Origin: Takakia lepidozioides
Lineage: Eukaryota; Plantae; Bryophyta
Reading direction: 5' to 3'
DNA: 64,000 nucleotides
Assembly: GCA_030704615.1 (NCBI GenBank)
Contig: CM060734.1
Coordinates: forward strand, 61,504,001-61,568,000
Shown here: positions 16,011 through 64,000 of the stretch, one piece after another
Position numbering within the stretch: position 1 is the stretch's first letter
Layout of the letters: every line of letters begins with the position of its first letter
Made by a program: the position numbers and the translations under genes
The notes under the pieces: generated by a model
Seen by the model: only the letters and a program-made list of their open reading frames with translations
Told to the model about the DNA's origin: nothing
Databases searched by the model: none

Positions 16011-16561
16011 TTACCAAAGTGAGGTGCGCGACATTGCAGCCTTTTCACTTTCCTTCTTCTGGGCCCCATCACTAAGTTTCCTTTTTCTGGGAGCCACAGG
16101 TGATGGCGATGTCAGGTCATGCACATCTTGCATTGAAACATTCGAACCCACCCCATACCGTGCGCGCACCTCCACCAAAGTGCGGGCCTTTGGGTTTGCA
16201 CCACGGAGTCTGGCGGTGGCCGTATTCACCACCCTCATTGAACTTTGAACTGGCCACGGCTTGAAGCCAGGTGGGATATAACGCTTGTTTTTGCAACCCG
16301 TGTCAACACAATGGCGGTTTAGCTGTGCACTTTGTCCTTGATAATTTCACTACAGAAGGGACAGTGGAGCTTATCTTTCTGCCAGTTGGAGTCTGCAGGC
16401 TTGATTGCGCGGAGATCTAAGAATGCTTCGACTATTTTCGCATCATACTCCTCAGGTGAGTACCAGTACCTTCGCTCCTTTAGCCTGGACTTGTGCATGA
16501 AATGCAACCAGTCTGCTCCACCCTTTGCACAAGCATCCTCCATGGCTGCAGAATCAGACAA
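16011..16561 (-). pseudogene. Small MULE accessory ORF with C2HC-type zinc finger and basic NLS (one frameshift)
   Basis: ORFs 16319-16561 and 16011-16238 join by a frameshift to give LHCPFCSEIIKDK/AQLNRHCVDTGCKNK...SPVAPRKRKLS. Confidence 0.5.
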
Positions 16562-18510: not shown

Positions 18511-18906
18511 CATGGATGGCGCGGATGGGTTTCTCAGAATAGACGATCCAGATCCTTCGGCCGGCGCGGACTGGCAGACTGGGGGCAGCAGACGGGCACA
18601 ACGGACTGTTGGGTGGACTTGCGCGGACTGGCACAGTGGACTGGCGTGCACAGCGGACTGGCCGGCAGGTTGGCGGTTTGGCGGGCAGCGGACTGGCGGG
18701 CGGACAGGCCGCGCCGGACTGGGAGTGCGGCGAAGCGCGGGCGGGGCTGCCGTGGGCGCGGCTGGTGGGGCCGCGGCAGCAGGTGGGCGACCGCGCGCAG
18801 CGGCGGGCGGGGGGTCCGGGTGGGGGGAGCCGGGCGTCCGTGCGCAAGGCCCACCGGTCAGCTCGCTTCTACGCCATAACGTCCCAATTATTGTAAAATG
18901 AGAGGC
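18511..18906 (-). repeat. Right TIR of the MULE
   Basis: Inverted copy of 4759-5187. Confidence 0.9.
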
Positions 18907-23300: not shown

Positions 23301-26154
23301 CCTGCTTCTCATAGAGAGCTTCGTCCTCCCCCTAAAACTTGAACTCACCATGGCTGAAGATGTTCAGTAGTGGTCTAAACCCACTGCTTAAGATCAAAGG
23401 AACCAAATGCACAGGAAGGCATGATCCTTTTTTGGTACTTCTCTGCTACGTTGCCTTTCTTGGGTCAAGATTGGCCTTGTGTTGGTATAAAAGATCATGT
23501 GATTTGTAGTGCTAATTGTACTGAGGAAGGCAGCTGTATGTGGGGAGCAGACTTTACCTACGGTTGCTGATCAGTGTTCCGGGCAACCGCCTGCGTGACA
23601 TTCTGAGCTATGGTGACGAGCGCATAGAAGAGGCGAAAGTCCCTAAGTCTTCGCAAGTCTCATCTCTTTTACGCTCGCCGTCCCCACCTACTTCCCAGGC
23701 CCCCAAGCAATCCTTGCCGGTTAGTTTTCTTTGTATGACCGAAATCTTGTCATTTGAAAGTGGGATAGGCTGTTGGTTGGTGCTTACTGCTTGAGCATGC
23801 TTGGGGCTTTGTTGCCACATATACCTATTAAAAATGCTGTTGATGCCACAAAGGTCTGTCTGTGCAATTAACTTGATTGAAATTGAGTGCTAGGGGCATG
23901 ATGGCACTTGAATCAGGCCTTGGAAGAGTGTGATGTCACTAATTCATTAGGAACCCGGGAATGGCTGGTTTGCATATGACATAGAAGGAGCTTGTGAAGT
24001 TGTCCGCATTCTCTGACACCGTTATAACAACACAACTTGGAAGAGTGAGACCTTGACTGAGCTGTTTGGGAAGTCACTAACTCAATAGAAACTGAGAAAT
24101 GGCTGGTTTGCATTTGACATAAAAGGAGATTGTGAAGTTGTCTGCATGCTCTGAAACCGCTAAGACATATACATAAGAGACAGTTTCTGAGGCCTGTAGA
24201 ATAGTCCTGTCTATCCCTTCAGGTGTTGACATTGCTAGTGCCAGCATCACTGTGGTGTGCTGATGTTTTCATTTGGAGCCAGACTGTTGCCTGTAGTCTT
24301 TTGGGTGGCCTGCTGCAAGCCCCAGTACCACAAGTTGGTGCCACCAGGCTTGGATGTTGGTCTGGAGTTCTGATGCTTACCATGTACCTAGTCCTATGTC
24401 TGCTCAGCTGAATCATATCCAGCAGGCAGGAGGGACCCAGTTAGCAGGTCATCAATCCTTTGGTATTTTGAGAATCTTCTGTGATATCCATACGTTGAAA
24501 TTAGCAACTGCTGTTTTTATGTGAGCAGCTGCAGGTTGGTGCATACATTCGACTGACAAGAGAGAATCGCTTGTTGGTCCGACTATCTTGGTCCTTGGTA
24601 CTCTATAACACATTCCGCACAGGTGTGGATGGGGGCTATAAGGATGTATCCTTAGGGAGTAAATTTTCAGAAGTTGTTGTGGAGGAGTTAAGTGACCAAA
24701 CAAAGGAGGTCAGTGGACAAGAAAATGGGGGGAAGACAGGGACACTTGTAGTGAAAATGGCAATGCCTGGTGATGTGGATAAGCCAGAGACGAGGGTGGA
24801 TCCAATACCACGAGTGATGGATGCCAAGACCTCAGAAGTTTTGGAAATACTACGGAGACATTTTGAGCAAATCCCTGATTTTCGGTGTAATTCTGGTGTG
24901 AAAATAAATGTACCATGCAATCTGAGGTTTCAAGGGGAGACCAGGCAGCGCATGCAGGGAGAAACAGAGACAAGTTCAGATTCACCACAATCGACAGGGT
25001 CTTTTTACAGTGTTCCGGATTCCTGGCCGGCTATATATGCTGTCGTCATTTCATTTATCACAACTGGGTTGTATGGCCCAATCCCATCGGTCCATGTGCC
25101 CTTTCTTCTTAGTGAACCCCCTCAGCGTAAGGCCTGGCAGAGGCCTGCTACTGACAGCCCTACTTCGACCATCAGAGAAGAATTTGTAAGGACAAGGAGA
25201 GCGGACCATCAGAGCACAGCCAGGAAAGGGAAGGCCAAACAGTCACCTGAAACTTCCCCCAGACACTCTGATGATGGTAGAGACAGCCAAGCCCTGGTCA
25301 GAGACTCATTGGGAAAGGATGGAGACCTGTTTAACAAAACGGTTGTAGTTGAGCTCGAGCCGAAACAACCGGTACCTACACTGGTAGATGCACGAATTGT
25401 GTTCAGTGATGAGGAGGGACAGAGTGTGCAAGGTCAGTTGGACTCTATTCCTGTGGGGATTGAGGATTTATTTGTGAAACCACCATTTCCTGACGGTCTA
25501 CCCCCCCAGGCAGAAGCTGAGTACTACTACTCTCTCTTCAATGCACTCTGGGAGGCATGCAGTGGGCCTGGCCGCCTGGGCACTGAGACTTTCTCTCTCA
25601 AGGGTGGAAGCCAGGTTGGAGTTCACATTGAGGGCTCTGAGTCAGTGAAATTGCTGGAAGGCCAGGCAGATCGAGTGGTGGGGGCTGTTGAACAGTGGCT
25701 AGCCTCTTTTGTTGTTGCAGTGAGTGGAGGCCCCTTAGTGTCAATGGCTCGGGACGGTGGAATGCTGGAGCATGTAGTCTGGCAGGATGATGATTTCTCA
25801 TTTGCTCCAAGCGGAGGGACATCCATTAAGGTCCGTGGTTGGGGCAGCGGTTCGAATGTGACAGAGGCTGGGCCCCACAGACGAAGTGGCAGTGGAGATG
25901 AAGGCTCCTTGCGACGACTAGAGTATCCAAGAGATGGGGGTGAAGCAGGAGGATCTGGAACCTTGGGGTTAGAGGAGGGGAGTAAGGGTGGCCTAGGGCG
26001 TTTTTTTGTTCTCATATTCTTACCCCCTCGATACCACTTGCTGCTCATAATGGAGGTCTCCGATTGGTCAACACTTGTGCGCATTCGGACTGACCATTGG
26101 CCATGCCTGGCACATGTAGATGAGTTTCTAGAAGCACTTGTCATGTCAAGATAG
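20301..26154 (+). CDS. AP5B1: AP-5 complex subunit beta-1; exons 20301-21066, 21708-22783, 23025-23149, 23551-23719, 24535-26154
   Basis: N-terminus LSVSDWEQLLQDF...KREFPLK.QLFNFLEE, internal ACECLRELE and PDIEVRDTARLYLRLL, C-terminus FLPPRYHLLLIMEVSDWSTLVRIRTDHWPCLAHVDEFLEAL are typical of plant AP5B1. All junctions are GT-AG and in phase. Confidence 0.92.
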
Positions 26155-39520: not shown

Positions 39521-39884
39521 TGTCATGGTTTTAGTCATGGTTATCTAGAATTACCTACTTCTAGTTAACTAGGACATTTTAGATATTTATATTTATATTT
39601 TGTGTGTTGGGACTTCATTTGGTCTCACATGCCAAGTGAGGTGTCGAGCCTCACTTGGGACATGGGATAGGTTTTCCCCTTGTGAGGATGGAGGAGGCTC
39701 ATCTTCTTGTAGTTGAGCCTCCATGAGCCTGTCTCGCCTCCATAGCTCTAGGTATTGAGAGAGAGTGTGGTGAGGGCTTTGTAGGATGGATTCTCTTAGC
39801 AAGGGTGCCCTTGGCTTGACTTACTTTATGTGATTGAGTGGATTCATGAGTGGAGGGTTTCCATTATGTTCACTTTCATTATAA
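39521..39884 (+). repeat. Terminal repeat (LTR segment B) of Gypsy copy A
   Basis: Starts TGTCATGGTTTTAGTCATGG. Homologous to 52809-53174 and 62496-62861. Confidence 0.9.
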
Positions 39885-40648
39885 CTACAAGAAGATGACC
39901 TTATGCTTGTGAGTGCGGAGTGTCAGGGATGCCTCGGCGTGAGCCTAGTCACGTGAGCGCGTGAGCGCAACTGCGCTCACGCCACGTCACCTTGCGCCAA
40001 TGCCACATCGCGAGGCTCACTCCACGTCATCACACTTGAAGACCGCGTCACCACGCGCCCAGGAAGAAGTGGAGTGTATTCCCGCGGATTGGCACCCTTT
40101 ACCGCGGAAACAAGCTGGACGACATAGTAAAAGGCAGTGGTCATTCCCACCTGAAAGCAACAGATGAATAAATGATGGATGAATGTACAGTTGGATGATA
40201 AACAGATGGATGAGTGTGAAAAATGAATGTAGATGGATGAATGAGGGATGGATAAGAGTCAAATGGATGAATGTATAATGGATGTTGAGCAATGTAAAAC
40301 ATTCATGATAGGAAGATGCATAACTAAAACTTTAGACGAATGCACAACGTATATGACATGAGTGTGGTAGGTTTGTGGGGTGGATTAAAGAGTACAGAGG
40401 ATGAATGTACAATGGATGTTGAACAAAGGAAAACATTCATGAATGGAGCACGCATGAATACACTGTAGATGAAAGCACAATGGATATGACAAGAGTGAGG
40501 GAGGTTTGTGAGATGGATTCATACATATGGCAATATAAATGGTAGTTGATTCTTTGATTATTTTTCTTTCCAAAGGAACAACAATGGTGGAGGAAAGGGA
40601 TTCAACGTTTTCCAAAGAGGATGAAACAGAATATTAAAAGAACATAGT

Positions 40649-45660: not shown

Positions 45661-46709
45661 GAAGCTTTATTGTGCACCAAGGGTTTGAGAGCTTGGAAAA
45701 GAGCTCTTGCATCACAAGAGAAGAGTCTTGTATGTGGAGAAGATAGACACTAGGGTTTCAAGAGCAAGCTCTAGTTGTTCATGGTATGAAAGAGAAGCCA
45801 AAGAGCGGCACATGCTTGGGTTAGAAACACTATAGAAGGAGTACAACAAGGATAGCTTGAGGAGCATTGAGTAGCTCAAGAGAAGCTAAGAAATGGTTGT
45901 TTTATCCATGGTGAAATGAAGCCAAGTGAGGTTTCATTTGGTTGACAAACAAGCAAGCTAAGGCGCTAGAAGGGAGTGTTTTTGCTAGTCTATGAGTTCT
46001 TGGATTGCTCTTGGTGAAGCAAGTGGTTGACCAAGCAAGTGGCGCATGTGTGGAGCATGTTTTCCAAGTGCGGCTTCCAACTTCAAGCTGGAGGAGAGCT
46101 AGAAGGTGAAGGGAACAAATCATTCTTTTGTGTATGAGGTGATGCTTATGTGGAGCATGTTTTCAGCCCATTGAGGCTTCTATTTTCAAGCCTTGGAGAG
46201 CAAGAAGAAAGGAAAAGGGTTGGTTTCCACTTAGGTGAAAGAAAAGCACTTGTAGAGCACATATTTGAGTTGGGGTTTCAACTTAAGCTTGAGGAGAGCA
46301 CGACTCTTGAGCTAGCAAGTGAAGGGACTTGAATCTTCCTCTTTGCATGAGATGGAGATGTATTGATGCTTGGAGAAGCAACACATAGAAGCCAAGAATG
46401 GAGCATGTGTGTGGATGGCCAAAGGAGAGCACATGAATAAATGCAAGACTTGGTTGCTTGTCAAATGAGGTAAAAAGCTTGATTCTTGAGCTCTAAAAAG
46501 AAGTGAAGCTTGTTGTGTGGAAAATGCATTGCTAGGTGAGATGGAATCAAGCTTGGTTGTGGCTTGAGGTGAAGAAGATCAAGGTAGTTTGCCTTGGTAT
46601 CTCATAGAAGTCATGAATGCTTGAGGAGAGCAAGCATGAAGCTCAAGGAAGCCCAAACCCTAGCTTGGAATGCACAAACCCTAGCATGAGATGCACATGA
46701 AACCCTAGG

Positions 46710-47280
46710 TGCATGGGAACAGTCACCAAAGTGTGGGAACCGTCACTATAGTTTGGGAACGGTCACCAAGGTGTGGGAACGGTCACTATAGGCTGGGAAC
46801 ATAGTGACATATAAAGACAATATAGGGCTTTCGGAGGATTTTCAAGGGCCTTTTGGAGGATTGTTTGGGGGATCTTTGGGGTCCTTTGGGGAGCTTTGGA
46901 AGACACTCTGAGGAGTTTTTGTAAGGCACTTTGAAGAGCTCTTGAAGAGGTATTTGGATGACTATTTGGAGGCCTATTTGCGGTCCTTGAAGGCCAAGTT
47001 TTGGCAAGTTTTTGGAGCCTTGGAAGGCTATGTGGAGGACCATTTGGGGTCTTTGAAGGCCAAGCTTTGGCAAGTTTTTGGAGCCTTTGGAAGGCTATGT
47101 GGAGGACCATTTGGGGTCTTTGAAGGCCAATATTTGGCAAGTTTTTGGAGCCTTTGGAGGGCTATTTGGGGTCCTTGGAGGCCGATATTTGGCGAGCTTG
47201 AGGAGTCTTTGACGACTTGTTGAAAGGACTATTTGGGGTCTTTGAGGGCCGAGATTTGGCAGGCTTTTGGGGCCTTGGTG
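46710..47280 (+). repeat. Short tandem repeats in the Gypsy 5' UTR (GGGAACGGTCAC units and ~60-bp TTGGGGTC..GAAGGCCAA..TTTGGCAAG units)
   Basis: Directly visible. The equivalent region of copy B (60730-60990) has GGTCCTCCAA repeats. Confidence 0.75.
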
Positions 47281-47944
47281 TACTGTTTGAGTACCATTGT
47301 CCAAGCTCTGGGAGTCTTAGTGAGATTGTTTGAGAGACATCTTGAGGGATCTTAGAGTTATTTGAGAGATCCTTGAAAGGTCTAGGGTAGTGGGATGAGA
47401 GCATGCTGTGATAGGAATTGCTTTAGTCTCTTTTCCTTGTAGTCTTCCACCCTCTCTGTAGGCCAAAATCTTTCCGTAGGTGGAGCAAGAGTCAGTCCGG
47501 GTTTGGGCTGGGGTGTCTTGCAGGAGCGACATTGTGGAGTGTTTTTGGTGTGGGGGAGTTACTGTTTTGATTTTCTTGTGCTTGGATCCCCTCCACACTT
47601 GCATGTTTGACTGTGCGCCATGTTAGTTTTGTGTGGGCGCTTGTTTTCATAGGAGGTTGGTCCGGATTTGAACATCGGACAATCCTAGAGAGTGATGTCG
47701 GTGGTGAGGCTGGGGTGATGACCAGTCAGACCTCATTGTTCTCTTATGGTGAGGTTGGGTTGATGACCAGCAGACCATAGGAGTGCTTGCGGTGGATGCA
47801 CGTGCAGGTGCAGGTGCAGGTTTATGTTATGAACCTAGTAGTCTAAGCCATAAGCTGCAACAGGTTCTTTACCCGGTTACCTTGTGGAAAGGGGGATTAG
47901 AGACAGGTTTACAACAGGTGTGGTTGTGAATTTTCATCACGGAG

Positions 47945-50262
47945 GTGCCACCAGTTGCTGAGGGGAGTGCCGGTACGAGCACCAGCGATACTAGTGGGTA
48001 TACAAGACGAGGTGTGTGGTTTAGGCCACCTTCACCTTCAGTGTCTTTTGAGGAAGGTTCAGACTCAGAGTTAGGAGGATTCTCGCCAAGGGTGCAAGCC
48101 ATTCCCGTGCCATTGTTGTGGGATACGATGGAGGAAATGTATGGAGCTACTAAGGGGCCACGTCGATACTCTGGAGCTGTGGGCACCATCGAGCTTGATG
48201 ATTTCATACAGGAGTTTGATAGTTGGTATGATTTGCAGCGGATGCATAATCCACAACTGTTTACGCCTTTTATGGCGTGGAAGGGGTTGTTTCAGCACCT
48301 TGAGGGGCCGCCTATGGATGACTATCATGGTTTAGGCGGGGAAATGAGGTGGAGATTGAGGAGTGGCGACAATATTGGTCACCTGGCAGCGGCGACACCA
48401 ACAGCAACACCAGCATCTCCAACTGCAAACACTAGTAGTGGGACAAGTAAAGATGGAGCTGGGAAATCCACTCAAGTTCCTGCTGCAGCACCAGCACCCG
48501 TGCCTGCCTTTAACCCAGTTGTGGAGTTCTTCGAGGAGTTGAGGAGAAACTACCAGGGGATAAGGACGGAGAAATTGCGGAGCTTGTAAGAGTTCCAGCA
48601 CAAGCCTACTGAGAGTTTGAGGGAGGCTTACACCCGCATGAGGCGCTTGATAAACGTAACCCAAGGGGTTACAGAAGCTCAGGCAGTCCAGTTCTGGTAT
48701 GGGATATTGGACAAGGAGCTGAGGAGAAGGGTGCGGGATGCAACTCTCCTACAAGTGAACCAACCCACCTTAGCAAATGTGTTTTTGCTGGCAGAGCAGA
48801 TAGAGCTTAATATGGTGGAGGAGCGAGTGGTTATGGTAGGGTTTGGCAAGGAGACACAACGAAGTGGGGTTCCTAGCCAACAACAACCACTACCCCAACG
48901 TGTTCAAAGCAACAAGGGGGCTCAGGTGAAGCCTAGGGAAGGACATAGAGGATCTCAGATGCAGAGGTCTCTTCCTTCATTTTCAGGCCAACAACAGTCG
49001 GGTGTGACTTGTTGGGATTGTGGAGGACCTCATGTCAAGAATGATTGCCCGGAGAGAGGCAAGGGCGGGCAAAGGCACAGCCTACACAACTACAGCGTGG
49101 GTATTGTGGAAAGTATGGGCATGAGGAGGCCCATTGTTATGGCTTTATCCTGAGCTACGGCCAGGCCAGTTCCAAGGGAATAATGGTGGCCGAGGACGAG
49201 GCAATGTAGTCCAGAGAGGTAGAGGAGGCAGAGGTTGGGGTGGAGGTTGTAACCAAAACCAAGGAGCACATGATCAAGGTCATGACCAAGACATGGTGGA
49301 TAGACTTGCCCAGCTAGAGCAACGTCTTGCTGCCATGGCCACTACTCATGTTGCGCCAGCTCCAAGGCTTGAGGTTCAAGCCCCACCAGCACAATCTCTT
49401 ATGCCTAGGGAAGATCAGATTGGTATGGGCTTCATGTGTGGAGCCGCACTTGCAGGGCCATTGCATGTATTGGACTCTACTGCTGCTGTCACTCGAGCAG
49501 CAACGCGTGCTCCTGAACCAAGAGGAGCGGATGTGGATTTTGATCCACAAAGGGGGGAAACAAGTCGTCAGACAAGGCTTCCACAGTCCTTTACATTGGC
49601 TGAGACAGTGCCACCTACGCCATCAATGGCACCCGCTCGCCCAAGTGTGTCAGAGGTAGAGCCACGAGTGTCATTGGGGAGAGTTGGTGTGGCTCGGGAA
49701 ATGCCAGTGGGTGGTGCTGCAAAACAAGGTGCAGCCAGTACATTGTTGGGGGCGGCTACGGCGGTTTGCCAAGCTCCATTATTTTCTTCCACGACAATTG
49801 CATTGTCGGGGATGCGGTCAGCTGCAGTGTTTAGACTGGCAGCTGCACTCTGTGAGAGTGGTGATGCATCGGCACTATCTGTGGGGATAGCGGATAAGGC
49901 GCAATGCATGAATGCCATGTATTCAAGGGTGAAGACAGCCACAGCTGCGCCATGGCAAGTGGCAGTTGCAAGGTTGCAGGAATTGTCAGCTATGCCAGCC
50001 CTTGAGCGCAGTATGGTGACTCCTGGGATAGTCCTGGTGGACAATCAGGATGGTGTGTTTCAGTTGGGTGGCCCAGCTGGGAGGAGGTATAGGCCACTGC
50101 GGGTCGTATTGGACTCGGGAGCACATCCATTGATGTTGGGGAGAGCAGCAATTGCAGGCTTGGGCCTTACAGAGGCGGATTTGGAGCCTTGCCCTTTCCA
50201 AATTCAAATATCTTTGGGTGGTTCAGAGAAGGCACGAGGGATTACACACCATGAGCTCTTCA
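47945..50262 (+). pseudogene. Gypsy gag (two CCHC knuckles) and aspartic protease, disrupted
   Basis: ELDDFIQEFDSW, ESLREAYTRMRRL, CWDCGGPHVKNDC, CGYCGKYGHEEAHC, RVVLDSGAHP. Stop at 48587 and frameshifts. Confidence 0.85.
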
Positions 50263-51014
50263 CACTACAACACACCCTATGTAATTTCGACGATTTAGTT
50301 TGACGCTGGCGTTGACTGTTGTCACTTTCGACTGTTCCAACCATTTTGCAGTCAAAATTTATATTAAAATATTCGAGGTGCTAGACAACCGCAAAATTTT
50401 TGACTGTAGTGAGAGATTTTGATTACCTAAAATAAGCTGACTAAGACAACCAGTTAAGCAATAGCATGTGTAATCACAATATATAAACTATATATAACAA
50501 TATATACGTGGATAATAAGAAATAAAAATATTTAACTATTTTTTCACTGACCCAACACATTAATAGTAAACTAATCATGTGTTGGTTAAGGTTAGTGAAA
50601 CAAAACAACTGAATTATCTGAACGAATGATAAACATACGCCTTGCTGGCAGCTATTGGATGAACGTATGAAAGGTTAGTGAAACAAAACAACTGAATTAT
50701 CTGAATGAATGATAAACAAACGCCTTGCTGGCAGCTGTTGGATGAACGTATGAAATATAATTTGTGTGCACTGGATGAACGTATGAATGAACGATAAAGC
50801 AAACATCTTGCTGACAACTATTGGATGAACGGAAAATTAAATGGATGGATGGATAGATTGATGGAAAACCCAAAATCCATCCATCTACGATACCTTCATC
50901 CACATAATTCAAAATAGATTTAGGGTTGCGGGATTGCGTTCAGCGATGAGTAAGTTATGGGACTTGATCGTTTTGCTGTGTTTGCATGGGAGGATTTGCA
51001 AGATATGCAATAGC

Positions 51015-51460
51015 TACTACATTGTGGGCATTGTGGCAAGTATGGGCATAAGGATGCCCATTGTTATGACTTGCATCCTAAGCTCCGGCCAAACCAGCTC
51101 CAAAGGAACAATGGTGGGCGAGAACAAAGCAATGTAGTCCAGAGAGGTAGAGGAGGCAGAGGTCGTGGTGGAGGTCATACAAAACCAAGGAACACATGGT
51201 CTGGGTCAAGGTCATGACCAAGGCATGGTGGATAGACTGGCCCAGCTAGAGCAACGTCTTGCTGCCATGGCCACTACTCATGTTGCCCTAGCTCCAAGGC
51301 CTAAGGTTCAAGCCCCACATGCACAACCTCCATGCCGCTGCATTACCTATGGTAGACCAAATTGGTATGGGGTTCATGTGTGGAGCCGCACTTGCAGGGC
51401 CATTGCATGTGGACTCTGCAGCTACTGTCACTCGAGCAACAACTTGTGCTCCTGAGCCAA
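51015..51460 (+). pseudogene. Isolated third gag fragment of the same Gypsy family
   Basis: Homologous to ~49090-49520 (CGKYGHKDAHC, MVDRLAQLEQRLAAMATTHV). Confidence 0.8.
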
Positions 51461-52315: not shown

Positions 52316-52723
52316 CTATGACTGTGGGATTAATGCAGAAAATCCTTGGCTGAATACAATGAAGACTACCATGGTTCCTACAATTGTAGCTTCCAACATT
52401 GTGCAATTACAAATTTTTGTTTCACTTTTACAATTACAAGAACAAGAAAATATCCTCACAAAGTATGAGCCATAGAGGCTGCCATGGAAAAACCTTGCTC
52501 CCTCCCCAAATAACAATGAGAGTTAGGATCATCTTCAAAAGATGATTGCAGAGCATAGCCACACGAAAATATGTAGACTTCGAAATGTGCAATGATGCAT
52601 GTGCTTTTAAAGTTGTCACTCAGAGCTCACTCAGTATAGTTGGAAGCATAATGGAGGGATAAGGGACGCCATATCATTGCACTGTCGACGATGTTGCAAA
52701 CGAATTGATTTGAATTGAATTTA

Positions 52724-53255
52724 GTCGTGCACCTAAGCATCGTGCCACAACATACATCGCTGTCCACCATACATTCTAAGCACACAATCCTAGAAAGCTA
52801 TGCCACAATGATAATGAAAGTGAACACAAGGGAAACACTCCACTCATGAATCCACTCAATCACATAAACTAAGTCAAGCCAATGGCACCTTTGCTAAAGG
52901 AATCCACCCTACAAAGCCATCACCACACTCCCACTCAATACCTAGAGTTATGGAGGTGGGAGAGGCTCATGGAGGCTCAACTACAAGAAGATGAGCCCTC
53001 CTCAACGCTCACAAGGGGAAAACCCATCCCCATGTCCCAAGTGAGGTTTGACACCTCACTTGGCATGTGAGACCAAATGAAGTCCCAACACACAAAATAC
53101 AAATATAAATATCCAAAATGTTCTAGTTAACTAGAAGTAGGTAATTCTAGTTAACCATGACTAAAACCATGACAGCTGTCGTGCACCTAAGCATCGTGCA
53201 TACATCGCTGTCCACCATACATTCTAAGCACACAATCCTAGAAAGCTATGCCACA
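52724..53255 (-). repeat. 3' terminal structure A1 (53177-53255) - GC - B2 (52809-53174) - T - A2 (52724-52807)
   Basis: The ~80-bp unit GTCGTGCACCTAAGCATCGTG...GAAAGCTATGCCACA occurs on both sides of the 366-bp unit. Confidence 0.9.
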
Positions 53256-53504
53256 ATTGCCCCCCTAGCTGGTGATTAGATCCCTCTAACACCGAATAGC
53301 TGACAAGTATCCATCTCAATAAGATCATCGCTTGGTCTTCAATCGCACATGTCCCAATTTTTTAAAGTATATGGATCAAGAGGCTGGGTGCAACGAAAGC
53401 CCCATTGTTAATCGTCTACTTGCAATCCATGATCTTCAATTGAGTATCTATGGCGTTGAGCTCCTACAAGCTAGACCTTGGATCACTTGTCAATTCCACC
53501 ATTG

Positions 53505-55150
53505 TCATGCCCACCACCTATGTCCAAGGCATCGTGGACTCAACCATTCTCCACTAGAAACCTCCTCAAGTGGCGGTGTCAAGCATCCCATGTGCCACCC
53601 CCTTGAGCATTTGTCACACACTAGCATAGTTACGGCACCACCAGCATGCCCATATAGCATGCAACGCAACCCTGCAGGTACCACTGCAAGGTTGAGATCT
53701 ATCCTCCCATCCACATGTGGAAGGTGACATGGCGCACAATTGCGCACATGGTCCTTCCATACCATGCCATCTCGACCCTCCAGAATCAACACTCCTGAAG
53801 GCAACACCTCCCGGACCCTTAGAATCACACGCCCTGCTGTGACATCCAAAGTCGTAGGCGCTGTCTGCTGCAGATACACATAGTCTCCAGGGTGGAAACG
53901 CCGAACACCTGGCCGGTATCCCCCTCCACGTACAGTGACATACCTCAATGTGTCTCGGTGTTGGGCAATAGCAAGGTTATCAAAAGCCATAGGCATGACT
54001 CTCTTGAACAACTCTGCCCGTTGGGCACATGCTTGTGTCCACACATCCGGATCATCAAGATTGAGGACTACTGCAGTCTCCCTGCGAATAGATGCATGCA
54101 AATCTAGCTCTCGGCCAAAGAGAAGGAAATAAGGTGAGAATGAGGCAAGTGAAGCTTGTTTGCTGAACCTATAGCCCATAGCTAGCCAAGGCAGCTGAAG
54201 GCCCCAATCTTCCAGGTGTCCCTTCTGCAAACCGTACTTGCACAAACCTCTCTTAACTGTCTGAACAACTCTCTCCGCCAAGCCAGCCTCGGGATGATCC
54301 CAAGAAGTAGTGCGGTGATCTATCAAGGCTTGCTCACACAAAGCCTGAAACTCCCCCAGGAATTCTCTCCCCTGGTCCGTGAGTACCTCGGCTGAAGCAC
54401 CAAAATGGCTAAGCACTCGATCTAAGAATGCATACGCAGCCCCCTCACTTGCCTTGTCAGGCAATGCCACCAGTTCAATCCATTTGGAGAAGTGTTCCAC
54501 CATCATCATCACATACTTGTTATGGTGAATCGTCAGTGGCAATGGGCCTGCGAAGTCAAGACTCCAACGATAGCCCAAACCCATAATGGGTAAAGGATGC
54601 AATTGTGGAGTAGGGGCGTTGAAAGAAGCCCGCATTTCTCTTTTTGCTCAATATCTCTGGAGTCTAGCTTCTCTTTCATCACTCATGTCCCATGTCTTTC
54701 ATTTCTGTTAATGTGGCAATAACCAAAACTCTCTTCTGTAGTATCTCTCGTATATGCCTGGGTTTCTTTCAGCTTCAATGCACCCTTGGCTATACTAGAA
54801 GTCTCTGTTACCATATAACCATATGGCAAACAAGTCTGGAAAGCTGTTCTTGGTGTGAGTTTGATCCACAGAATATCCTTAGGAATCCAATTCTTTACCA
54901 GTACAAGCTCTTCATGCATATGAGTATAAACATTCACCTTCCTTTCCTCCCAACCTTCAAACTCTACTCGCTTAATGGATAACAATGCTATCACATAAAC
55001 CAGTGTTGGTAACCAACATATATTACACACCATGCACCTTGCCATTAACTGTTGCACATCCGTGTGCATGCCCCGCCACCAATACTGCCCTTGCAGCAAA
55101 CTATGAGTGCGTCGCACCCCAAAATGTCTCAACTCCTCATGGGCATGGCG
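53505..55150 (-). pseudogene. Gypsy integrase (HHCC + DDE) with C-terminal PHD finger; interrupted by a ~390-bp insert
   Basis: HAHEELRHFG...CMVC, WSLDFAGPLP, LTDQGREF, LAERVVQTVK, and the tail CMLYG...MLVCDKCSRGWHMGCLTPPLEEVSSGEWLSPRC. Confidence 0.9.
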
Positions 55151-55551
55151 TACCAATCGCGTTCGTTGTGTTGGATGAGGCACAATCCTCACTCGTCCAT
55201 CCTCCCATACCCGTAGTAGGTGAGTCCCTTCCCACTTGAACCTCTTGGCTCGTTGTAGGATCCGATCTCTTTCCTTAGCAGTCACACTGGCTGCTGTCTC
55301 TCCTGTACGAAGGTAGATCAACACTGCTGCATCTTCATGCACATCCTTAGCACCACCAAACTCCTCACTGATCTCCGAATCGTCATGCACACCATCTACT
55401 TGACCAATGCTATGGGATGGACTAGCTTGAGCTCCCATTGCTAGGATGCACAAAAAGGCAGATGCATGCCATCCTGGCACCATCTCCTCATTTGGCTCAC
55501 CATGCCACCAAGCTCCAGTATCATCATGCTTGCTCGTGCAAGGATTACGAC

Positions 55552-56588
55552 TCAATCCATCTGCACCCGATTGACAATACCGGCTCGATGCACCACCTGG
55601 AAGTCGTACTCTTGAAGAATAAGTGCCCACCGTGCAAGCTTCCCTGTAAGCTTATCTAACTCCATCAACCACTTCAATGGTTGGTGATCTGTGACAAGGG
55701 TGAAGAGGTTGTTATAGAGGTAGCATCTGAAATGTGACACTGCCCATACCGCAGCTAGACACTCCCCTTCATATGAGCTATACTTCGCCTCGGCATCATT
55801 GTTCAAGCAGCTAGCATATGTCACAACGAACTCTCTTCCCTCATTATTCACATGTGTAAGCACTGCTCCAATCCCCAGCATACTCCAATCCATATGTAGC
55901 TGGAAAGGCCGCCCCCGAATAGGCCGCCTCAGAATAGGTGCAGAAGTCAATCGAGCCTTGAGTTCCTCAAAGGCTTCCTCCTGTTCCTCCTCCCACTACC
56001 ACTCCTGACCCACCTTGGTCAACTTGGTAAGAGCCTTTGCAATGCTGCTAAATCCCTTGACAAACCGTCGATAGTAGTTTGCCAACCCCATGAAAGCTTA
56101 AACTCTGCTAAGCGTGGAATGCGTGCAAGGGCCTCCACCTTCGTCTTTTGAACACCCAATCCTCCAGGGTATATCATGTGGCCCAGATACTCAATCTGGT
56201 TGTGGAAGAACTTGCACTTCCCAGGGTGCAATTTCAACCCGTGCGCTCTCAAGCGCTCAAACACCACCTGAAGGTGTCTCTCATGCTCCTCAACTGTAGC
56301 ACTAAAGACGACGATGTCATCAATGTAGCACCGGACGAAGTCTAGTCCCACGAGAATCCTATCCATGACTCTCTGAAACTCTGCAGGAGCATTCTTCAGC
56401 CCAAACGGTAAGAACCGCCATTGGTACAAGCAATCCTTCTCATGTTGGTCAATCCCCCAAAATGCCGTCTTTTGCTTGTCAGCCTCTTTGATTGGCAACT
56501 GGTGGTAACCGGATTGCAAGTCCAATGTGCTAAACATCTTTGCATGCCCAATGACATCAAAGATCTCATCTGGAGTTGGCATGGGTGG
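55552..56588 (-). pseudogene. Reverse transcriptase (N-terminally deleted) and RNase H
   Basis: PMPTPDEIFD, FSTLDLQSGYHQ, LPFGLKNAPAEFQR, YIDD. RNase H FQLHMDWS...YEGECLAAVWAV...TDHQPL. Confidence 0.92.
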
Positions 56589-57185
56589 CCGTTGAATGGA
56601 ATCATATGCTCTCTTGAGTAGCTCTGGTGGTGCAAGATTGGTCCACCACAATCGAGGTCGATGCGCGCGTGATCCCACCGTTGCTGCATCCAATAGCACC
56701 GCCGATCCAATCCAAGACCGCACCTGATGCACACTGGCCATAACCCTGGCCCGAGAGTCCCCCATAAGAGGAACATTCTCCAAGATATAGGCTAGAGGTT
56801 GCACTTGCTTCGTCTGCAAGTCACGCAACACTCTCAACATCTCCCAAAACAAATGCGATCGTGCATCATGCAAGCCATTCCCATGACCTGCTGTCCTCGG
56901 CAAGGCCATCCAGCTATCACCAAGTCAATGGCACCATGCTGGTCCAAATCATCCGTCCCCAGCATGGTAATGTCTGCTGGCAAGGCCTTTTGGTACCCTT
57001 GAATTGCTGAGAGATGCAGCAACTCAGGGTACTGGTGGGTGAGCAAGGCAACGTGACGCATAGAAATACACCAAGCTATCTTATCCTTCTCCACATACAA
57101 GTACTTTTGTACTTTAATCCCAGCTTGCAACACTCCTGCAAGCCCAGTGCTCATGCCTCCAAACAGGTCTAGCAAACAAATCCCC
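56589..57185 (-). pseudogene. DNMT3-like C5-cytosine DNA methyltransferase domain embedded in pol (frameshift after motif IV, C-terminal motifs deleted)
   Basis: Motif I LLDLFGGMSTG, II YVEKD, III ADIT, IV DLVIAGWPC, GLHDARSHLFWE, VI YILENV, VIII AHRPRLWWTN. Confidence 0.9.
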
Positions 57186-57539
57186 GAGTCAGGTGGTTGC
57201 CAGATAATGGGCACTGTGTCCAAATGAGCTAACTGAGGAGGTCCAAGTGATGTCACTGAACTCCCCTCACTCACCAATGGATAGGCCTCCTGCCATGCTT
57301 GGTGCACACACTTGCCTGCTATTCGATGCAAATTCCCAACTGTACCCCACAGTGGAATATGAACAGGCACATGAGGAGCCTTGTATGTCAATTGTTTGAC
57401 CTCATCAGGTGGCGGCCTATCATCTGCATGGCTATTGCCCTCCAAGAGCTCACCACCCCAAGCCACCACCCCTAAGAATGCAGCCAATGTAGGCATCATG
57501 TTCCTATGATCCACCGCTACATTCCCAATAAACCGCACT

Positions 57540-60003
57540 GAGAGCAGTGCACGTTGACCATCCCCTGACTGCCATTCCGGCCTATAGGATGCCGTTTCCT
57601 CCCAAAATTCCAAAGTAAAGCCCATCGGGTATAATACAGCCCCACCAACAAGCACATCATAAGACATCGCGTCCGTAATAATGGCTTTAGCTCTCATGAC
57701 CATCTGTAGGATGATCTAGCTGCAATCGAATGAAGAGCTCATGGCATGTAATCCCTCGTGTCTTCTCTGAACCGCCCAAATATGTTTGAATTTGGAAAGG
57801 GCAAGGCTCCAAATCTGCCTCTGTAAGGCCCAAGTCTGCAATTGCTGCTCTTCCCAACATCAATGGCTGTGCTCCTGAGTCCAACAAGACTCGCAGTGGC
57901 CTATACCTCCTCCCGGCTGGGCCACCCAACTGAAACACACCATCCTGATTGTCCACCAGGACTACCCAAGGAGTCACCATACTGCGCTCAATGGCTGGCC
58001 TAGCTGACAACTCTTGCAACCTTGCAGCTGCCGCTTGCCATGGTGCAGCTGTGGTTGTCTTCACCCTTGAATCCAGGGCATTCATGCATTGCATCTTATC
58101 TGCTATCCCCGCAGATAGTGTCGATGCATCACCACTCTCACATAGTGCAGCTGCTAGTCTAAACACTGCAGCTGGCCGCATCCTCGGCATTGCAATGGTC
58201 GTGGCAGAAAACAATAGAGCTTGACAAATTTCCGTAGCCGCCCCCAAAAATGTACTAGCTACACCTTGCTTTGCAGCACCACCCACTGGCATTTCCCGAG
58301 CCACACCAACTCTCTCCACTGGCACTCGTGGCTCTATCTCTAACACACTTGGGCGAGCGGGTACCATCGATGGCATAGTTGGCACTGTCTCAGCCAATGT
58401 GAAAGACCGTGAAAGCCTTGTCTGCCGACTTGCTTCTCCTCTTTGTGGATCAAAATTCACATCCGCTCTTCTTGGCTCAGGAGCACGTGTTGCTGCTCGA
58501 GTGACAGCAGCTGCAGAGTCCACATGTGCAAGTGCGGCTCCACACATGAAGCCCATACCAATCTGGTCTTCCCTAGGCATATGAGGTTGTGCAGATGGGG
58601 CTTGAAGCTCAGGCCTTGGAGCTGGCGTAACATGAGTAGTGGCCATGGTAGCAAGACGTTGCTCTAGCTGGGCAAGCCTATTTACCATGTCTTGGTCATG
58701 ACCTTGACCGTGACCCTACACTCCTTAGTTTTGGTTACGACCTCCACCACGACCTCTGCCTCCTCTACCTCTCTGGACTACATTGTCTCGTCCTCGACCA
58801 CCATTGTTCCCTTGGAACTGGCCTGGCCGTAGCTCAGGATGCAAGTCATAACAATGGGCCTCTTCATGCCCATACTTGCCACAATGCCCACATTGTAGTT
58901 GTGTAGGTTGTGCCTGTGCCGGCCCTTTGTCTCTTTCCGGGCAATCTCTCTTAACATGAGGTCAAGATCCTCGCGGCCCTCCCCTAGGCTTCGCCTGAGC
59001 CCCCTTGTTGCCTTGAGCATGTTGGGGTAGTGGTTTTTGTTGGCTAAGAGCCCCACTTTGTTGTGTCTCCTTACCAAACCCCACCATGACCACTTGCTCT
59101 TCCACCATATTGAGCTCTATCCGCTCTGCCAGCAAAAACACGTTTGCTAAGGTGGGTTGGACCACTTGTAGGAGAGTTGCATCCCGCACCCTTCTCCTCA
59201 GCTCCTTGTCCAATATCCCATACCAAAATTGGACGGCTTGAGCTTCCGTAACCCCTTGGGTTACATTTATCAATTGCCTCATGCGCATGTAAGCCTCCCT
59301 CAAACTCTTAGTAGGCTTGCGCTGGAACTCCTGCAAGCTCCGCAATTTTTCCATCCTTATCCCCTGGTAGTTTCTCCTTAACTCCTCGAAGAACTCCACA
59401 ACTGGGTTATAGGCAAGCACGGGTGTTGGTGGTGCAGCATGAGCTTGGGTGGACTTCCCAGCTCATGTTCCACTTGACGTCCCACTGCTGCTTGTAGAAG
59501 CTGCCGGTATAGCTACCGATGTCACCACTGCCCTTATGCCTCTAGTGATGGAGACATAGTCAGGTGACCAATACACCCGCCATTCCTCAATCTCCACCAC
59601 ATGTCCCCGCCTAAACTCATGGTAGTCATCCATGGGCGGCCCCTCAAGGTGTTGGAATAGCCCCTCCCACGCCATAAAAGGGCGTAAACAGTTGTGGATT
59701 ACGCATTTGCTGCAAATCACACCAACTATCAAACTCTTGTATGAAGTCATCAAGCTCGATGGTGCCCACAGCTCCAGAGTACCTACGTGGCCTCTTGGTA
59801 GCTCCATACATCTCCTCCATCGTGTCCCACAACAATGGCACGGAAATTACTTGCACCCTCGGCGAGAATCCTCCTGACTCCGAGTCTGAACCTTCCTCAG
59901 AAGACACTGAAGGCGAAGGTGGCCTAAACCGCACACCTTGTCTTGTATACCCACTAGTAGCGCTGGTGCTCGTACCGGCACTCTCCTCAGCAACTGGTGG
60001 CAC
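57540..60003 (-). pseudogene. Gypsy gag and aspartic protease of copy B (frameshifted)
   Basis: Parallels 47945-50262. Protease RVLLDSGAQP...SYDVLVGG. Confidence 0.88.
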
Positions 60004-62481
60004 CTCCGTGATGAAAACTCACAACCACACCTGTTGTAAACCTGTCTCTAATCCCCCTTTCCACAAGGTAACCAGGTAGAGAACCTGTTGTAGCTTATGG
60101 CTTAGACTACTAGGTTTGTAACATAAACCTGCACCTGCATCCACCGCAAGCACTCATATGGTCTGTTGGTCATCAACCCAGCCTCACCATAAGAGAAACA
60201 ATGATGGTCTGACTGGTCATCACCCCGGCCTCACCACCGACAGCACGCTCTAGGATTAGCCGGTGATCAAATCCGGACCACTATGAAAACAAGCGCCCAC
60301 ATAAAGCTAACATGGCGCACAGTCAAGCATGCAGGTGTGGAGGGGATCCAAACACAAGAAAATCAATACAGCAACTCCCCCACACCAAAAACACTCCACA
60401 GTGTCGCTCCTGCAATGACACCCCAGCCCAAACCCGGACTGACTCTTGCCTCCACCTACGGAAAGGTTTTGGCCTACAGAGAGGGTGGAAGACTACAAGG
60501 AAGAGAGACTAAAGCAATTCCTATCACAACATGCTCTCATCCCACTACCCTATCTCCACACTGTCTTGCTTGAACAATAGACAAGACTACCTTTCAAGGG
60601 TCTCTCAAATAACTCTCCAGGAGCCCTCAAGAATATGTCTCTCAAACAATCTCACTAAGGCTCCCAATCCTTGCACGATGGGACTCCAAAACAGTACACC
60701 AAGGCCCCAAGCTTGCCAAAACTTAGCCCTCGAGGACCCCAATAGTCCCTCACACAAGTCGCCAAAGACTCCTCAAGCTCGCCAAATATTGGCCTCCAAG
60801 GACCCCAAATAGTCCTCCAAAGAACTCTAAGGACCCCAAACAGTCCTCCAAGGACTCCCAATGGTCCTCCAAATGGTCCTCCAAACAGTCCTCCAAGGAC
60901 TCCCAATGGTCCTCCACACAGTCCTCCAAGGACTCCCTATGGTCCTCCAAATGGTCCTCCAAGGACCCCAAACAGTCCTCCAAGGACTCTTCCTATATCC
61001 CATGTTCCCAATGCGTTCCCAAGTTCCCAATGGGTTTCCAAAGTTCCATAGGAATATTCCCAAGAATATGCCATAGTATTCCCCCAGTATTCCACTAGGC
61101 CTATACATATTCCCCTTGTATTCCCCTTGTATTCCCCTTAGGAATAGCCATTTCCCCCTTGCCCCTCATAAAGTAGTTCATTTCCCCCCAGGGTTTAGCC
61201 ATTTCCCCCTAGGCTTTAGCCACTTCCCCCTTTATTTCCTTGAGGTTTAGCCTTACCAAGCTAGGGTTTGTGCTCCTTGGGGCTCTATGCTTAATCCCCT
61301 CAAGCATCCATGAATTCTATGGGGTACCAAGGCAAATTCCCTTGATCTTCTTCACCTTAAGCTACTCAAGCTTGTCTCCAACTCAACCAGCAATGCATTG
61401 GCCACACAACAAGCTCAATTTTTCATTGGAACTCAAAATCAAGCTTGTACCTCCTTTGGCAAGCCACCAAGCCTTGTCTCCTCTCAAGCCTTGGTCATTC
61501 AAGCTCCCTTCACTTGCTAGCTCAAGAGCCATTCCTCTCAAGCTTGCTCAAGCCAAAAGCTCAAGCCAAAAACATGCTCCACACATGCATCGCCTCATAC
61601 ACAAGGAAATCAACTTGCTCCCTTTACCTTCTAGCTCTCCTCAAGCTTGAAATTGGAAGCCACACTTGGGAAGCATGCTCCACATAAGCATCACTTGCTT
61701 GATCAACCATCCACCACAAAACTTAAGCCAAAAGGGAATGAATACATAAGCTTCACCTTCCCCTTCCTTGTCTTGTCACATGCTATATGGTTGAAGTTGC
61801 TATGCATGCCTTGAGCCACAATCTCTTTTCTTTATGAAGACCACCTCCAATGATCTCCCACATGTGCTCCAAGCTCTTCAATGCTCTAGGCTTGGTTTCA
61901 CATCATCATGGATAGAATTTTCACCCATATGCTTCCCTTCAAACCTCTTGAGCTTCCTAATGCTCTCCAAGTGTTTGCCCTTATTGTCTTCAAGCCCAAG
62001 CCTATGTAGCTCCTTGGCTTCTCTTCCACAACATCCACAATTGAGCTTGCTTAACCCTAGATTGATAGTGACATGAGTACTAACAATCATTTAGTTGCTC
62101 TCCACAAGCCATGGCACACACCATTGACTCCATAATGCATTGAAAAGATTCTCAAACCCTAGAATCCATGCTTCCACACACACAAGACTTCCCTCTTGCA
62201 ATCCTTGCAAATCTTGTGGCAACAAGCTCCTTCTTGAGTTCTGCAACACCTTGGTGTAACACCACAAGTACCTTTCCTTGCAAAGGCTTGTGATCTACAA
62301 GAGCTCCATCTTTGAGCTCTCCACCTCCTTAGGGCAAAGCAATATCTCTCAAAGCCCTAACACCACAAGGATTTTCCTTTGCAATATATGCAACACCTGG
62401 CAGCACAAGAGCTATCTTCCCAAGGTCTTCAACACACAAGTGCTAAACTAACCCTTACACTCCGCACTCACAAGCATAAGG

Positions 62482-62496
62482 TCATCTTCTTGTAGT
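62482..62496 (-). promoter_or_regulatory. Putative self-priming primer-binding site
   Basis: ACTACAAGAAGATGA at the inner edge of repeat B is perfectly complementary to 62667-62681 inside B. The same pairing is present in copy A (39884-39898 vs 39699-39713). Confidence 0.6.
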
Positions 62497-62861
62497 GATA
62501 ATGAAAGTGAACACAAGGTAAACACTCCACTCATGAATCCACTCAATCACATAAACTAAATCAAGCCAATGGCACCTTTGCTAAATGAATCCACCCTACA
62601 AAGCCCTCACCACACTCCCACTCAATACCTAGAGCTATGGAGGTGGGAGAGGCTCATGGAGGCTCAACTACAAGAAGATGAGCCCTCCTCAACACTCACA
62701 AGGGGAAAACCCATCCCCATGTCCCAAATGAGGTTTGACATCTCACTTGGCATGTGAGACCAAATGAAGTCCCAACACACAAAATACAAATATAAATGTC
62801 CAAAATGTCCTAGTTAACTAGAAGTAGGTAATTCTAGTTAACCATGACTAAAACCATGACA
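62496..62861 (-). repeat. 5' terminal repeat (segment B) of Gypsy copy B
   Basis: TGTCATGG...TTATCA on the minus strand, 366 bp. Confidence 0.92.
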
Positions 62862-62933
62862 ATTTCCATGACAATGTTGCAAATTGCACATTTCATAGCA
62901 TGATCGTCCACATACCACATTGCATAGCAGATG

Positions 62934-63650
62934 CTACCTATGTGTTGTATCCCGCTGCAATAGAGTATCAACCTCGTTGAAACTCAGAGTGGCCTGGTGA
63001 ACGAAGTTGTCACGTTTGGAATCGCAAACCATCCTCTTCAAATACAAATGTGTGCAGGGTATGAATTTACCTCTCTTGCCCAAACTGGTTGATAACATAT
63101 TCACAAAATCAGGACATGTGCAATTGGGGAAATTGAAAACCGTGATGTCGTAGGCCCTGTCATGAACAGCAGATGTCGAAGTGATCGTTGTATACACCCG
63201 ACTATATCCTGAATCGGGCACTTCCATGGTGCTTGCAACACGAGCTTGGAGCATTCTTGCGGACTTCACTTTGCCAAAATGTTCAGCGGTTGGATTGAAA
63301 TGCCGAACCAGCTTTCCATCTCGTTTGGTTGGCCACAAGTGAGGATTTGCCGGAGGGACCCGAGAGGATGCAGAAGTAAAAGCACATGCATGCAATTGGG
63401 GTTGTCTCGCAAGAGAAAAGCCTGCCTCCTCCAGCATTGCAATCTCCTGACTCGTGAGATGTGTTCCCACCTTGACGGGCGAAACGGTTGGAGGAGCTGG
63501 CTTCATTACCACGGAAGGATGCACAGTTCTATGCACACATCTATCGTCTTGATGCTGAAGCCTGCAGTCGTGTCGGAGGTTCTTCCAGAATGGAGGTTCC
63601 GGACATGGATCTGTCATGCAGGGGAACACGAGGCTTCGAGAAGTTATCAC
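62934..63650 (-). CDS. TE-associated SWIM zinc-finger ORF (probably partial or decayed)
   Basis: YDITVFNFPNCTCPDF...FIPCTHLY is a SWIM CxC-xn-CxH motif followed by HQATLSFNEV. No DDE core visible in the window. Confidence 0.65.
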   Translation of the reverse strand: MITSRSLVFPCMTDPCPEPPFWKNLRHDCRLQHQDDRCVHRTVHPSVVMKPAPPTVSPVKVGTHLTSQEIAMLEEAGFSLARQPQLHACAFTSASSRVPPANPHLWPTKRDGKLVRHFNPTAEHFGKVKSARMLQARVASTMEVPDSGYSRVYTTITSTSAVHDRAYDITVFNFPNCTCPDFVNMLSTSLGKRGKFIPCTHLYLKRMVCDSKRDNFVHQATLSFNEVDTLLQRDTTHR

Positions 63651-64000
63651 GGTTTGCCCTGTGCGAATCGGAATCCGAACCAGGTGGGGTGTTCAATTTC
63701 CTCTTACAGGAGCCGAATCTCTCCTCCCCTTCAAGATGTAGAATTCTAGAAACAAGTGGCGTTCCCTGGGCATACAACAAAAAAAAAAAACAAAACAGAA
63801 ATGATGATCGGCGGCACCGACCATCGCGTCCACCCAAATGTCAAATGTCAAAAGTCACCTTAAATTTATATATATATATATAATAAAAAATCGGAAAGTG
63901 ATGATCGGTGGCACCGACAGAAGTGATTGTCAGCACCGACCATCACATCCACCCAAATGTCGAATGTCAAAAGCGGAAAAAAATTAAAATTAAATTTAAA

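Follow-up and report, generated by a model that had tools for sequence, protein, structure and literature searches.

A DNMT3-like methyltransferase in a decayed Ty3/Gypsy element of Takakia lepidozioides and in its green-lineage relatives

The window, that is, the whole 64-kb stretch of Takakia lepidozioides DNA that was analysed, holds a decayed Ty3/Gypsy element of 10.1 kb (52723-62861, minus strand) in which a DNMT3-like segment lies between the protease and the reverse transcriptase (RT). Judged from its sequence, this element is dead, belongs to an old Ty3/Gypsy family of the green lineage, and cannot itself methylate anything; it is disabled by frame breaks near 57700, 56895 and 56112, and by stops in gag. 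That the family is real, and that its DNMT is under selection, is close to certain. In the text of PMC5890265, DNMT-bearing Gypsy elements are a lineage-specific acquisition of one alga, Klebsormidium nitens, with no function shown. To that element, KnitGypsy-Dnmt3, the family described here adds a land-plant range, a stop codon and a permuted-LTR anatomy. The question at stake is this: why should a transposon carry an enzyme that silences transposons? The family includes 15 annotated proteins of Marchantia polymorpha, a species with methylation mutants and methylomes, so that the question is now testable.

As for the methyltransferase segment, the ordered C5-methyltransferase motifs proposed in the initial annotation are indeed present, on the minus strand from 57172 to 56637. 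Motif I reads LDLFGG (57172-57155), motif II YVEK (57097-57086), motif III ADI (56977-56969), motif IV AGWPC (56914-56900), motif VI ILENV (56786-56772) and motif VIII AHRPRLWWTN (56666-56637), all taken directly from the translated letters. The segment as a whole, delimited by structure matches and alignment, spans 56589..57205 on the same strand; its target-recognition domain and motifs IX-X are deleted, and the one small frameshift that had been claimed was located just after motif IV. The DNMT has its motifs in the order I to X and sits, intronless, inside a polyprotein, unlike the stand-alone multi-exon cellular DNMT3 or the rearranged DRM. Among solved structures, the best matches of its two halves are DNMT3C/3A (E 1e-4 and 1.9e-6), with DRM2 and HaeIII behind, and the likeness to DNMT3 is one of best matches rather than of a tree with cellular DNMT3. 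The suggested check with PF00145 came out just below the cut-off (21.6 bits for the window piece alone, against 22), the structure matches to DNMT3 being clear. With the first half as query, 11 longer relatives were found among 145 candidates, with E down to 1e-40, and seven of these are named Marchantia; over 95 aa, the window DNMT has 68% identity to a protein of Calypogeia fissa. Diverged contig pieces from sequencing runs of the window's own organism cover the segment as well. A feature search with the DNMT (Atlas) offered no discrimination, since plant and phage methyltransferase clusters tied at 0.96.

The other parts of a Ty3/Gypsy element surround this segment, all on the minus strand. 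A long 5' leader with short tandem repeats (60100..62481, repeats at ~60733-60995), also found in a second partial copy at 45763-47800, precedes gag (58778..59820), where a capsid-like region and CCHC-type remnants are interrupted by stops and frame breaks (PF03732, E 4.6e-4; tblastn with the Marchantia protein P0004). The aspartic protease (57540..57960) has its DSG at 57881-57873 and a frame break near 57700, and was identified by the alignment of relatives together with a PF13650 match at E 0.0027, which is below the cut-off. Downstream of the DNMT are the RT (56000..56585; PF00078, E 7e-32), with its N-terminus missing and a frame break near 56112, RNase H (RH, 55567..55995; PF17917, E 9e-33), the zinc-binding domain of the integrase (INT, 55022..55175; PF17921, E 3e-13), its DDE core (54090..54634; PF00665, E 4e-12) and a damaged C-terminal PHD finger (53508..53665; PF00628, E 4e-7). 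No Chromo match was obtained in the window or in the scanned relatives, which have PHD instead. The placement of the DNMT between protease and RT was thus read correctly at the outset. The frame that it was said to share with the protease is shared by the C-terminal protease half and motifs I-IV, whereas the catalytic DSG lies beyond the further break near 57700. Between the two parts of the integrase is a later insertion of ~390 bp (54635..55020, no strand assigned), seen as a gap in tblastn and joined across by contigs of all four sequencing runs used; it occurs once in the window, has deep coverage in these runs, and is possibly a MITE or a solo repeat.

How widespread is this arrangement? 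With the Marchantia domain as query, 73 DNMT matches were obtained among 7996 candidates, and those named comprise 15 from Marchantia polymorpha and one each from Calypogeia fissa, Sphagnum fallax, Monoraphidium neglectum and an entry labelled as a bacterial MAG. Two layouts occur: type A, gag-PR-DNMT before RT, and type B, RT-RH-DNMT-INT-PHD. In a metagenome scan that obtained 80 of 96 loci, both DNMT halves lay between protease and RT in 42/42 loci showing protease then RT, a count biased by the use of a DNMT peptide as one search pattern. These loci are not independent, because most of them belong to one moss-type family matching the Sphagnum protein (199 identities, gapped gene model); locus L051 represents a second family. 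The same position and the full domain recur in liverwort, moss and algal relatives, so that the DNMT is not unique to this copy. In 15/34 type-B proteins (e.g., P0035, P0036, P0048 and P0052), and also in P0100 of Closterium, motif IV reads GWEC for GWPC, with the Cys, ENx and RxR kept. Three Gypsy polyproteins, the family members P0221 and P0074 together with P0184, carry bacterial or cyanobacterial labels, and are probably eukaryotic contigs in metagenome bins.

Trees were made from both the RT-RH region and the DNMT, and both are quickly built, query-biased and without reference lineages and cellular DNMT3. In the RT-RH tree (FastTree on 133 rows of query-biased matches, partial RT-RH rows having been dropped by a length filter), the window element falls in a 15-row clade (support 97) with Calypogeia, Marchantia and the moss-type loci. 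Next to this clade is a Coleochaete scutata transcriptome ORF (96), further out are Closterium elements with the DNMT before RT (87), and K. nitens RTs and type-B elements fall within the same clade of 124 rows (99). In the DNMT tree, which is unrooted, the window element groups with the bryophytes (20 rows, 100), and type A and type B are split from each other (99). The K. nitens RTs of the broad clade are not equated with KnitGypsy-Dnmt3, because no DNMT-bearing K. nitens protein was among the 73 matches from the 7996 candidates. As far as such trees go, they fit an old capture of the DNMT followed by largely vertical descent.

Comparison with intact relatives also clarifies what happened to the window copy. 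From motif VIII to the RT motif MPTP there are 23 residues in the window, against 364 in L011 and 378 in L051, both intact, so that the fusion of DNMT and RT in the window is a deletion product. Some 341-355 codons are gone, and with them the target-recognition domain and the last two motifs (IX and X) of the DNMT, as well as the beginning of RT. The junction, at 56586..56590 on the minus strand (~1.0-1.07 kb lost, from the landmark spacing and the domain maps of intact loci), joins the DNMT remnant to mid-RT. The reading frame common to DNMT and RT is therefore true of this copy, whereas intact relatives have an in-frame stop between the two. In the closest of these, the DNMT is the end of the Gag-protease ORF, followed by the stop TAG-CAA-CCN and then by RT-RH-INT-PHD; the uninterrupted Pol with DNMT and RT in one piece, as first proposed, has to be abandoned for the nearest relatives.

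The stop is found at the same codon in all 35 in-frame junctions (44 were examined, nine of them frameshifted). It is TAG or TAA in 45/47 junctions, and the next codon is CAA in 46/47. Proteins of the first ORF from Marchantia, Calypogeia and others finish at the equivalent place, 72-108 residues past motif X, and the database has many stand-alone proteins of ~1030-1170 aa with the order RT-RH-INT-PHD. Readthrough of this conserved stop is the likely way in which the RT-RNase H-integrase-PHD part is made. It is favoured by L051, whose junction TAG-CAA-CCA has no Met there and is a full match to CAR-YYA, the readthrough signal of tobacco mosaic virus (PMC2194720). An ATG three codons past the stop in 43/47 junctions, mostly of one moss family, makes re-initiation possible. 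The common context, CAA-CCC, departs from CAR-YYA in its last letter, and a similar stop in Tca2 gave no readthrough in yeast, as described in PMC2194720. Nor is the stop universal, because one locus has GAG in its place, and three type-A proteins (P0085, P0113 and P0132) continue from DNMT to RT with no stop at all. Should readthrough be correct, the DNMT would be made at the level of Gag, and RT at a few percent of it; the stop codon thus predicts the amount of enzyme made.

Another unusual point concerns the ends of the element, and here the unusual termini that the initial annotation had remarked on, together with the PHD reader, are borne out. On the minus strand, the 5' end is repeat A1 (62496..62861), which starts TGTCATG, ends CA, and is 97.3% identical to A2 over 366 nt. 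The 3' end consists of B1 (53177..53255; TG at its start, CACGACA at its end, 93% identity to B2), A2 (52809..53174, recognized by its identity to A1) and B2 (52723..52807, recognized by its identity to B1), whose terminal CA is CT here. The order is thus A1...B1-A2-B2, and the same order was found in L006, L014, L044 and L048. Family elements end in TG...CA, and the insertion in the window is flanked by an identical target-site duplication, AAAT, at 62862..62865 and 52719..52722. Among nine loci, the duplication is an exact 4 bp in seven, matches in 3 of 4 letters in one, and is absent from one with a damaged left end; none of the nine has a 5-bp duplication. Where B meets A, the letters are CA-NN-TG, with a 2-nt spacer in 6/6 loci and in the window, as counted from blast-based ends. 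In the window this B1/A2 joint (53168..53183), CACGACA-GC-TGTCATG, is a near-perfect 16-bp palindrome and, on comparison with relatives, a predicted internal integrase site; the A2/B2 joint reads CA-N1-2-TG. A purine tract, AGGGGGG (53260..53266), stands 4 nt ahead of B1, and the same tract is 5 nt ahead of B1 in the moss-type loci. Since A and B have no significant sequence in common between the two families, it is the layout of the repeats that is conserved and not their letters. The paired repeats of one element share private variants (two columns in B and nine in A, both small counts), as expected if the pair is rebuilt from one template in each cycle.

Related to the ends is the question of priming. 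No tRNA-type primer site was found after A1, and the 64-kb window contains no tRNA genes. Instead, the predicted primer-binding site comes straight after A1 (62482..62496, minus strand), without the tRNA-type TGG, and is the exact complement of a predicted 15-nt self-primer inside A (62667..62681), likely near the start of the transcript. The complement between the inside of A and the end of A1 with the letters that follow is 15 and 16 nt long in the two window copies, where the long stems have folding z values of -4.2 (the 15-nt primer) and -4.4; it reaches at least 10 nt in 10/17 loci and is below 10 nt in 7/17, with different letters in the two families. In shuffled controls, 9/2000 reached 10 nt and 0/2000 exceeded 12 nt.

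These features suggest how the element may have replicated. Transcription would start inside A1, and the 5' end of the RNA would fold onto the site after A1 and serve as the primer for RT, in the manner of Tf1/Tcn1 elements. The plus strand would then be primed at the purine tract, yielding a normal cDNA with an LTR composed of B+A at each end; B+A is taken as the LTR because the primer site follows A and the purine tract precedes B. Joining of the cDNA ends would give a two-LTR circle whose junction is the A2/B2 joint, CA-N1-2-TG. DDE integrases insert recessed CA ends with 2-nt overhangs, and just such ends would arise if, within the CA-NN-TG palindrome of the left LTR, the integrase cut each strand just behind its CA. 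Insertion of the circle so cut would produce A1-body-B1-A2-B2, and the PHD finger could steer the choice of insertion site. A precedent exists in foamy virus, whose integrase cleaves the palindromic two-LTR junction (PMC1180852); the CA..TG circle joint is cut likewise, but at the LTR-LTR junction, which restores a normal provirus, whereas here the cut would fall within the LTR and permute the ends. A circle opened by an internal integrase cut has a little better than even prospects of being correct. There are two B/A joints per two-LTR circle, and the other permutation (A-B-A-body-B) was seen in none of 22 left ends, representing ~18 distinct insertions; the model accordingly needs a bias that it leaves unexplained.

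This one-sidedness also speaks for a different route, in which the split repeats are replicated in the style of the PAT/Ngaro-type DIRS elements. In these, an internal joint serves as template for rebuilding the ends; the RNA would here run from A1 to B2, the B1/A2 joint would be the template, and no standard two-LTR cDNA would form. The repeat order is indeed that of DIRS. However, with a purine tract before B1 and a primer site behind A1, B+A has the marks of an ordinary LTR, and the TG/CA ends with 4-bp duplications are those of DDE integration. DIRS elements have a tyrosine recombinase and lack an integrase-type target-site duplication; the window element has the DDE integrase of PF00665, Pfam found no tyrosine recombinase in the scanned ORFs, and 4-bp duplications are present in 7/9 loci and in the window. 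DIRS-style replication is for these reasons a minority reading, albeit a serious one. If the integrase-cut circle is right, the repeat anatomy gives a concrete answer to how DIRS-like ends came to be on an element with a DDE integrase, and revives circles as precursors of integration.

Some copies have a different structure. Those of the form A-body-B with a single B (L005, L013, L026, L037 and L060) were considered as insertions of one-LTR circles and set aside, recombination between B1 and B2 or collapse in assembly being equally good explanations; their 4-bp duplication is exact in four, and L060 has 3 of 4 letters. They were not counted, because L005 has the same right flank as L034, once with and once without A2-B2. 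Other rearrangements are a lone A inside another copy (L052:1676-2014) and a B in inverted orientation that stands right ahead of the primer site (L016:7057-7168 and L017:6343-6454).

What would the methyltransferase do in such a cycle? Lying ahead of the stop, it would be packaged at a Gag-like abundance, freed by the protease, and could methylate the cDNA or the circle, so that the insert arrives already marked. Whether the element's own cDNA is the main target is an even call. The account as a whole, with Gag-protease-DNMT, self-methylation of new DNA, readthrough and a circle cut inside the LTR, falls just on the probable side. A DNMT that is active but directed elsewhere, at host chromatin in trans, at the insertion site, at RNA, or towards restraint of the element's own jumping, is an unlikely alternative, for which it can be said that a domain encoded ahead of the stop should be made in quantity and is not bound to remain with the cDNA; RNA methylation and self-restraint are among the options given by de Mendoza et al. 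in PMC5890265. Against it, the fusion to Gag-protease would, as retroelement biology suggests, place the DNMT in the particle, where cDNA is made, and the fold matches the DNA-directed DNMT3.

Is the enzyme likely to work at all? The catalytic Cys is found in 29/31 type-A gag-PR-DNMT proteins, the other two having gaps, and in 34/34 type-B RH-DNMT-INT proteins. All 65 proteins (31 of type A and 34 of type B) have the Glu of motif VI and the second Arg of motif VIII, and SAM-binding motif I is kept across both layouts; catalytic motifs are therefore not missing from the relatives. The dN/dS of the DNMT is 0.12-0.17 between L051 and six loci and 0.13-0.20 between the window and six loci, compared to 0.41-0.51 in the adjacent linker, the between-family ratios being rough because dS is near or at saturation. 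For motifs IV-VIII, pN is 0.17-0.22 and pS 0.77-0.82, with dS saturated. Neutral evolution, which had been named as a refuting outcome, does not describe the comparison between families; inside the moss family, a pN/pS of 0.58 is what decay after insertion would produce. An alignment-based model of the L051 domain has a pLDDT of 88.9, and in Foldseek it retrieved DNMT3A/B/C in all matches listed (best E 2e-19). From the conserved residues and the modelled fold, it is probable that the intact enzyme is active on DNA.

The contrary reading, that the DNMT persists as a module that binds DNA but is non-catalytic or needs a co-factor, appears less probable still than a different target. In its favour, the one related domain assayed, that of KnitGypsy-Dnmt3, failed to methylate DNA de novo in yeast, an outcome described by its authors as inconclusive (PMC5890265), and the Pro of the PC motif is replaced in 17/34 type-B proteins, 15 times by Glu. 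However, human DNMT3B failed in the same yeast assay (PMC5890265), and the motif IV Cys, VI Glu, VIII Arg and motif I are retained in both layouts. The decay of the copies is silent on self-methylation: C-to-T changes in the DNMT region of the moss-type loci affect 17% of CG, 21% of CHG and 5% of CHH sites, which fits ordinary host silencing; CT sites (15%) stand above CA (7%) and CC (4%). That this one copy picked up a fragment of a host DNMT3 by chance, or that the assembly is at fault, to which the broken copy and its incomplete DNMT might point, is refuted for practical purposes by the full domain at the same position in liverwort, moss and algal relatives, the diverged contig pieces that cover the DNMT, and the low dN/dS.

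A broader picture can be offered tentatively. In it, an ancient clade of PHD-bearing Gypsy elements, including those of Marchantia, would prime itself, circularise, be opened inside the LTR by its integrase, package a DNMT at the level of Gag and insert already methylated; the DNMT would be older than land plants and occupy two positions in the polyprotein, and the whole would be unlike any described LTR retrotransposon.

How does this family compare to known systems? With KnitGypsy-Dnmt3, as described in PMC5890265, it shares the Ty3/Gypsy domain set, the DDE integrase, an intronless and unrearranged DNMT3-like domain with its key residues (whole in the relatives and truncated in the window), purifying selection on the DNMT, and DIRS-like split repeats. 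The algal element differs in having the DNMT in a Pol ORF with RT and RNase H, whereas in the window family it is at the end of the Gag-protease ORF, and in more distant relatives there is one ORF. PMC5890265 also presents the algal element as an acquisition of the K. nitens lineage, while relatives are found here in liverworts, peat moss, Closterium and, with the second layout, a chlorophyte. No discussion of priming, termini or target duplication of KnitGypsy-Dnmt3 was found in the text of that paper that was available. The Symbiodinium elements SymbioDIRS-Dnmt3 and SymbioLINE-Dnmt (PMC5890265) are also retroelements with C5 methyltransferases, the former methylating CG de novo in yeast, but they are dinoflagellate DIRS and LINE elements and not Gypsy elements with a DDE integrase. 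The EpiLTRs of Cymbomonas and Euglena (bioRxiv 10.64898/2026.05.21.726589) likewise combine an LTR element with a DNMT and a chromatin reader; theirs are a DNMT sister to DNMT4, a DAM methylase and a chromodomain, and in the text available their authors separate them from "streptophyte Gypsy-DNMT3".

With the Tf1/Sushi and plant Tcn1 chromoviruses (Neumann et al. 2019, PMC6317226), the common feature is predicted self-priming in place of a tRNA primer. Those elements have chromodomains and ordinary LTRs, whereas the window family has a PHD finger, a DNMT and permuted repeats; a search of the main text of PMC6317226 for methyltransferase, PHD and Marchantia gave nothing. Gypsy-7a_cRei and REM1 of Chlamydomonas (PMC9940879) share a Gypsy polyprotein with PHD, and their description, on which the comparison is based, mentions no DNMT or split repeats.

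In the library of papers that was searched, no land-plant Gypsy element with a DNMT is described. The corresponding terms were found only in de Mendoza 2018 (PMC5890265) and in bioRxiv 10.64898/2026.05.21.726589, the accessible text of which cites "streptophytes (Gypsy-DNMT3)" without naming a land plant. Six Marchantia gene identifiers of the family were found in no paper of that library, and neither the main text of PMC5890265 nor its readable supplements mention Marchantia. In PMC12344493, as far as its text was available, Marchantia is named only for 4mC. In practice, standard LTR finders would probably miss or mis-delimit such elements, and the ORFs of these elements probably inflate DNMT counts in bryophyte proteomes.

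The remainder of the window offers several observations of its own. A second, inverted and partial copy of the same family is on the plus strand at 39521-39928 and 45763-51460, in the order A with primer site, ~5.8 kb of other DNA, leader, gag and protease; it is 84-89% identical, stops short of the DNMT, and includes a further gag fragment at 51016-51460. The host gene for AP-5 complex subunit beta-1 lies at 20277-26154 on the plus strand, with at least three large exons (PF21588, PF21589 and PF21590). An ORF with a SWIM-like CxC...CxH pattern, 62934-63692 on the minus strand, is well covered in the sequencing runs, has no Pfam match, and is possibly the remnant of a MULE-like transposase; the element was inserted in or beside it. 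It was rejected as a part of the element, since it is outside the target duplication. The region 4650-18950, bounded by inverted repeats (~4760-5190 and 18510-18910), looks like a MULE-type DNA transposon and holds a transposase-like ORF (5883-6776), a SWIM finger ORF (8224-9069, PF04434) and several short tandem arrays.
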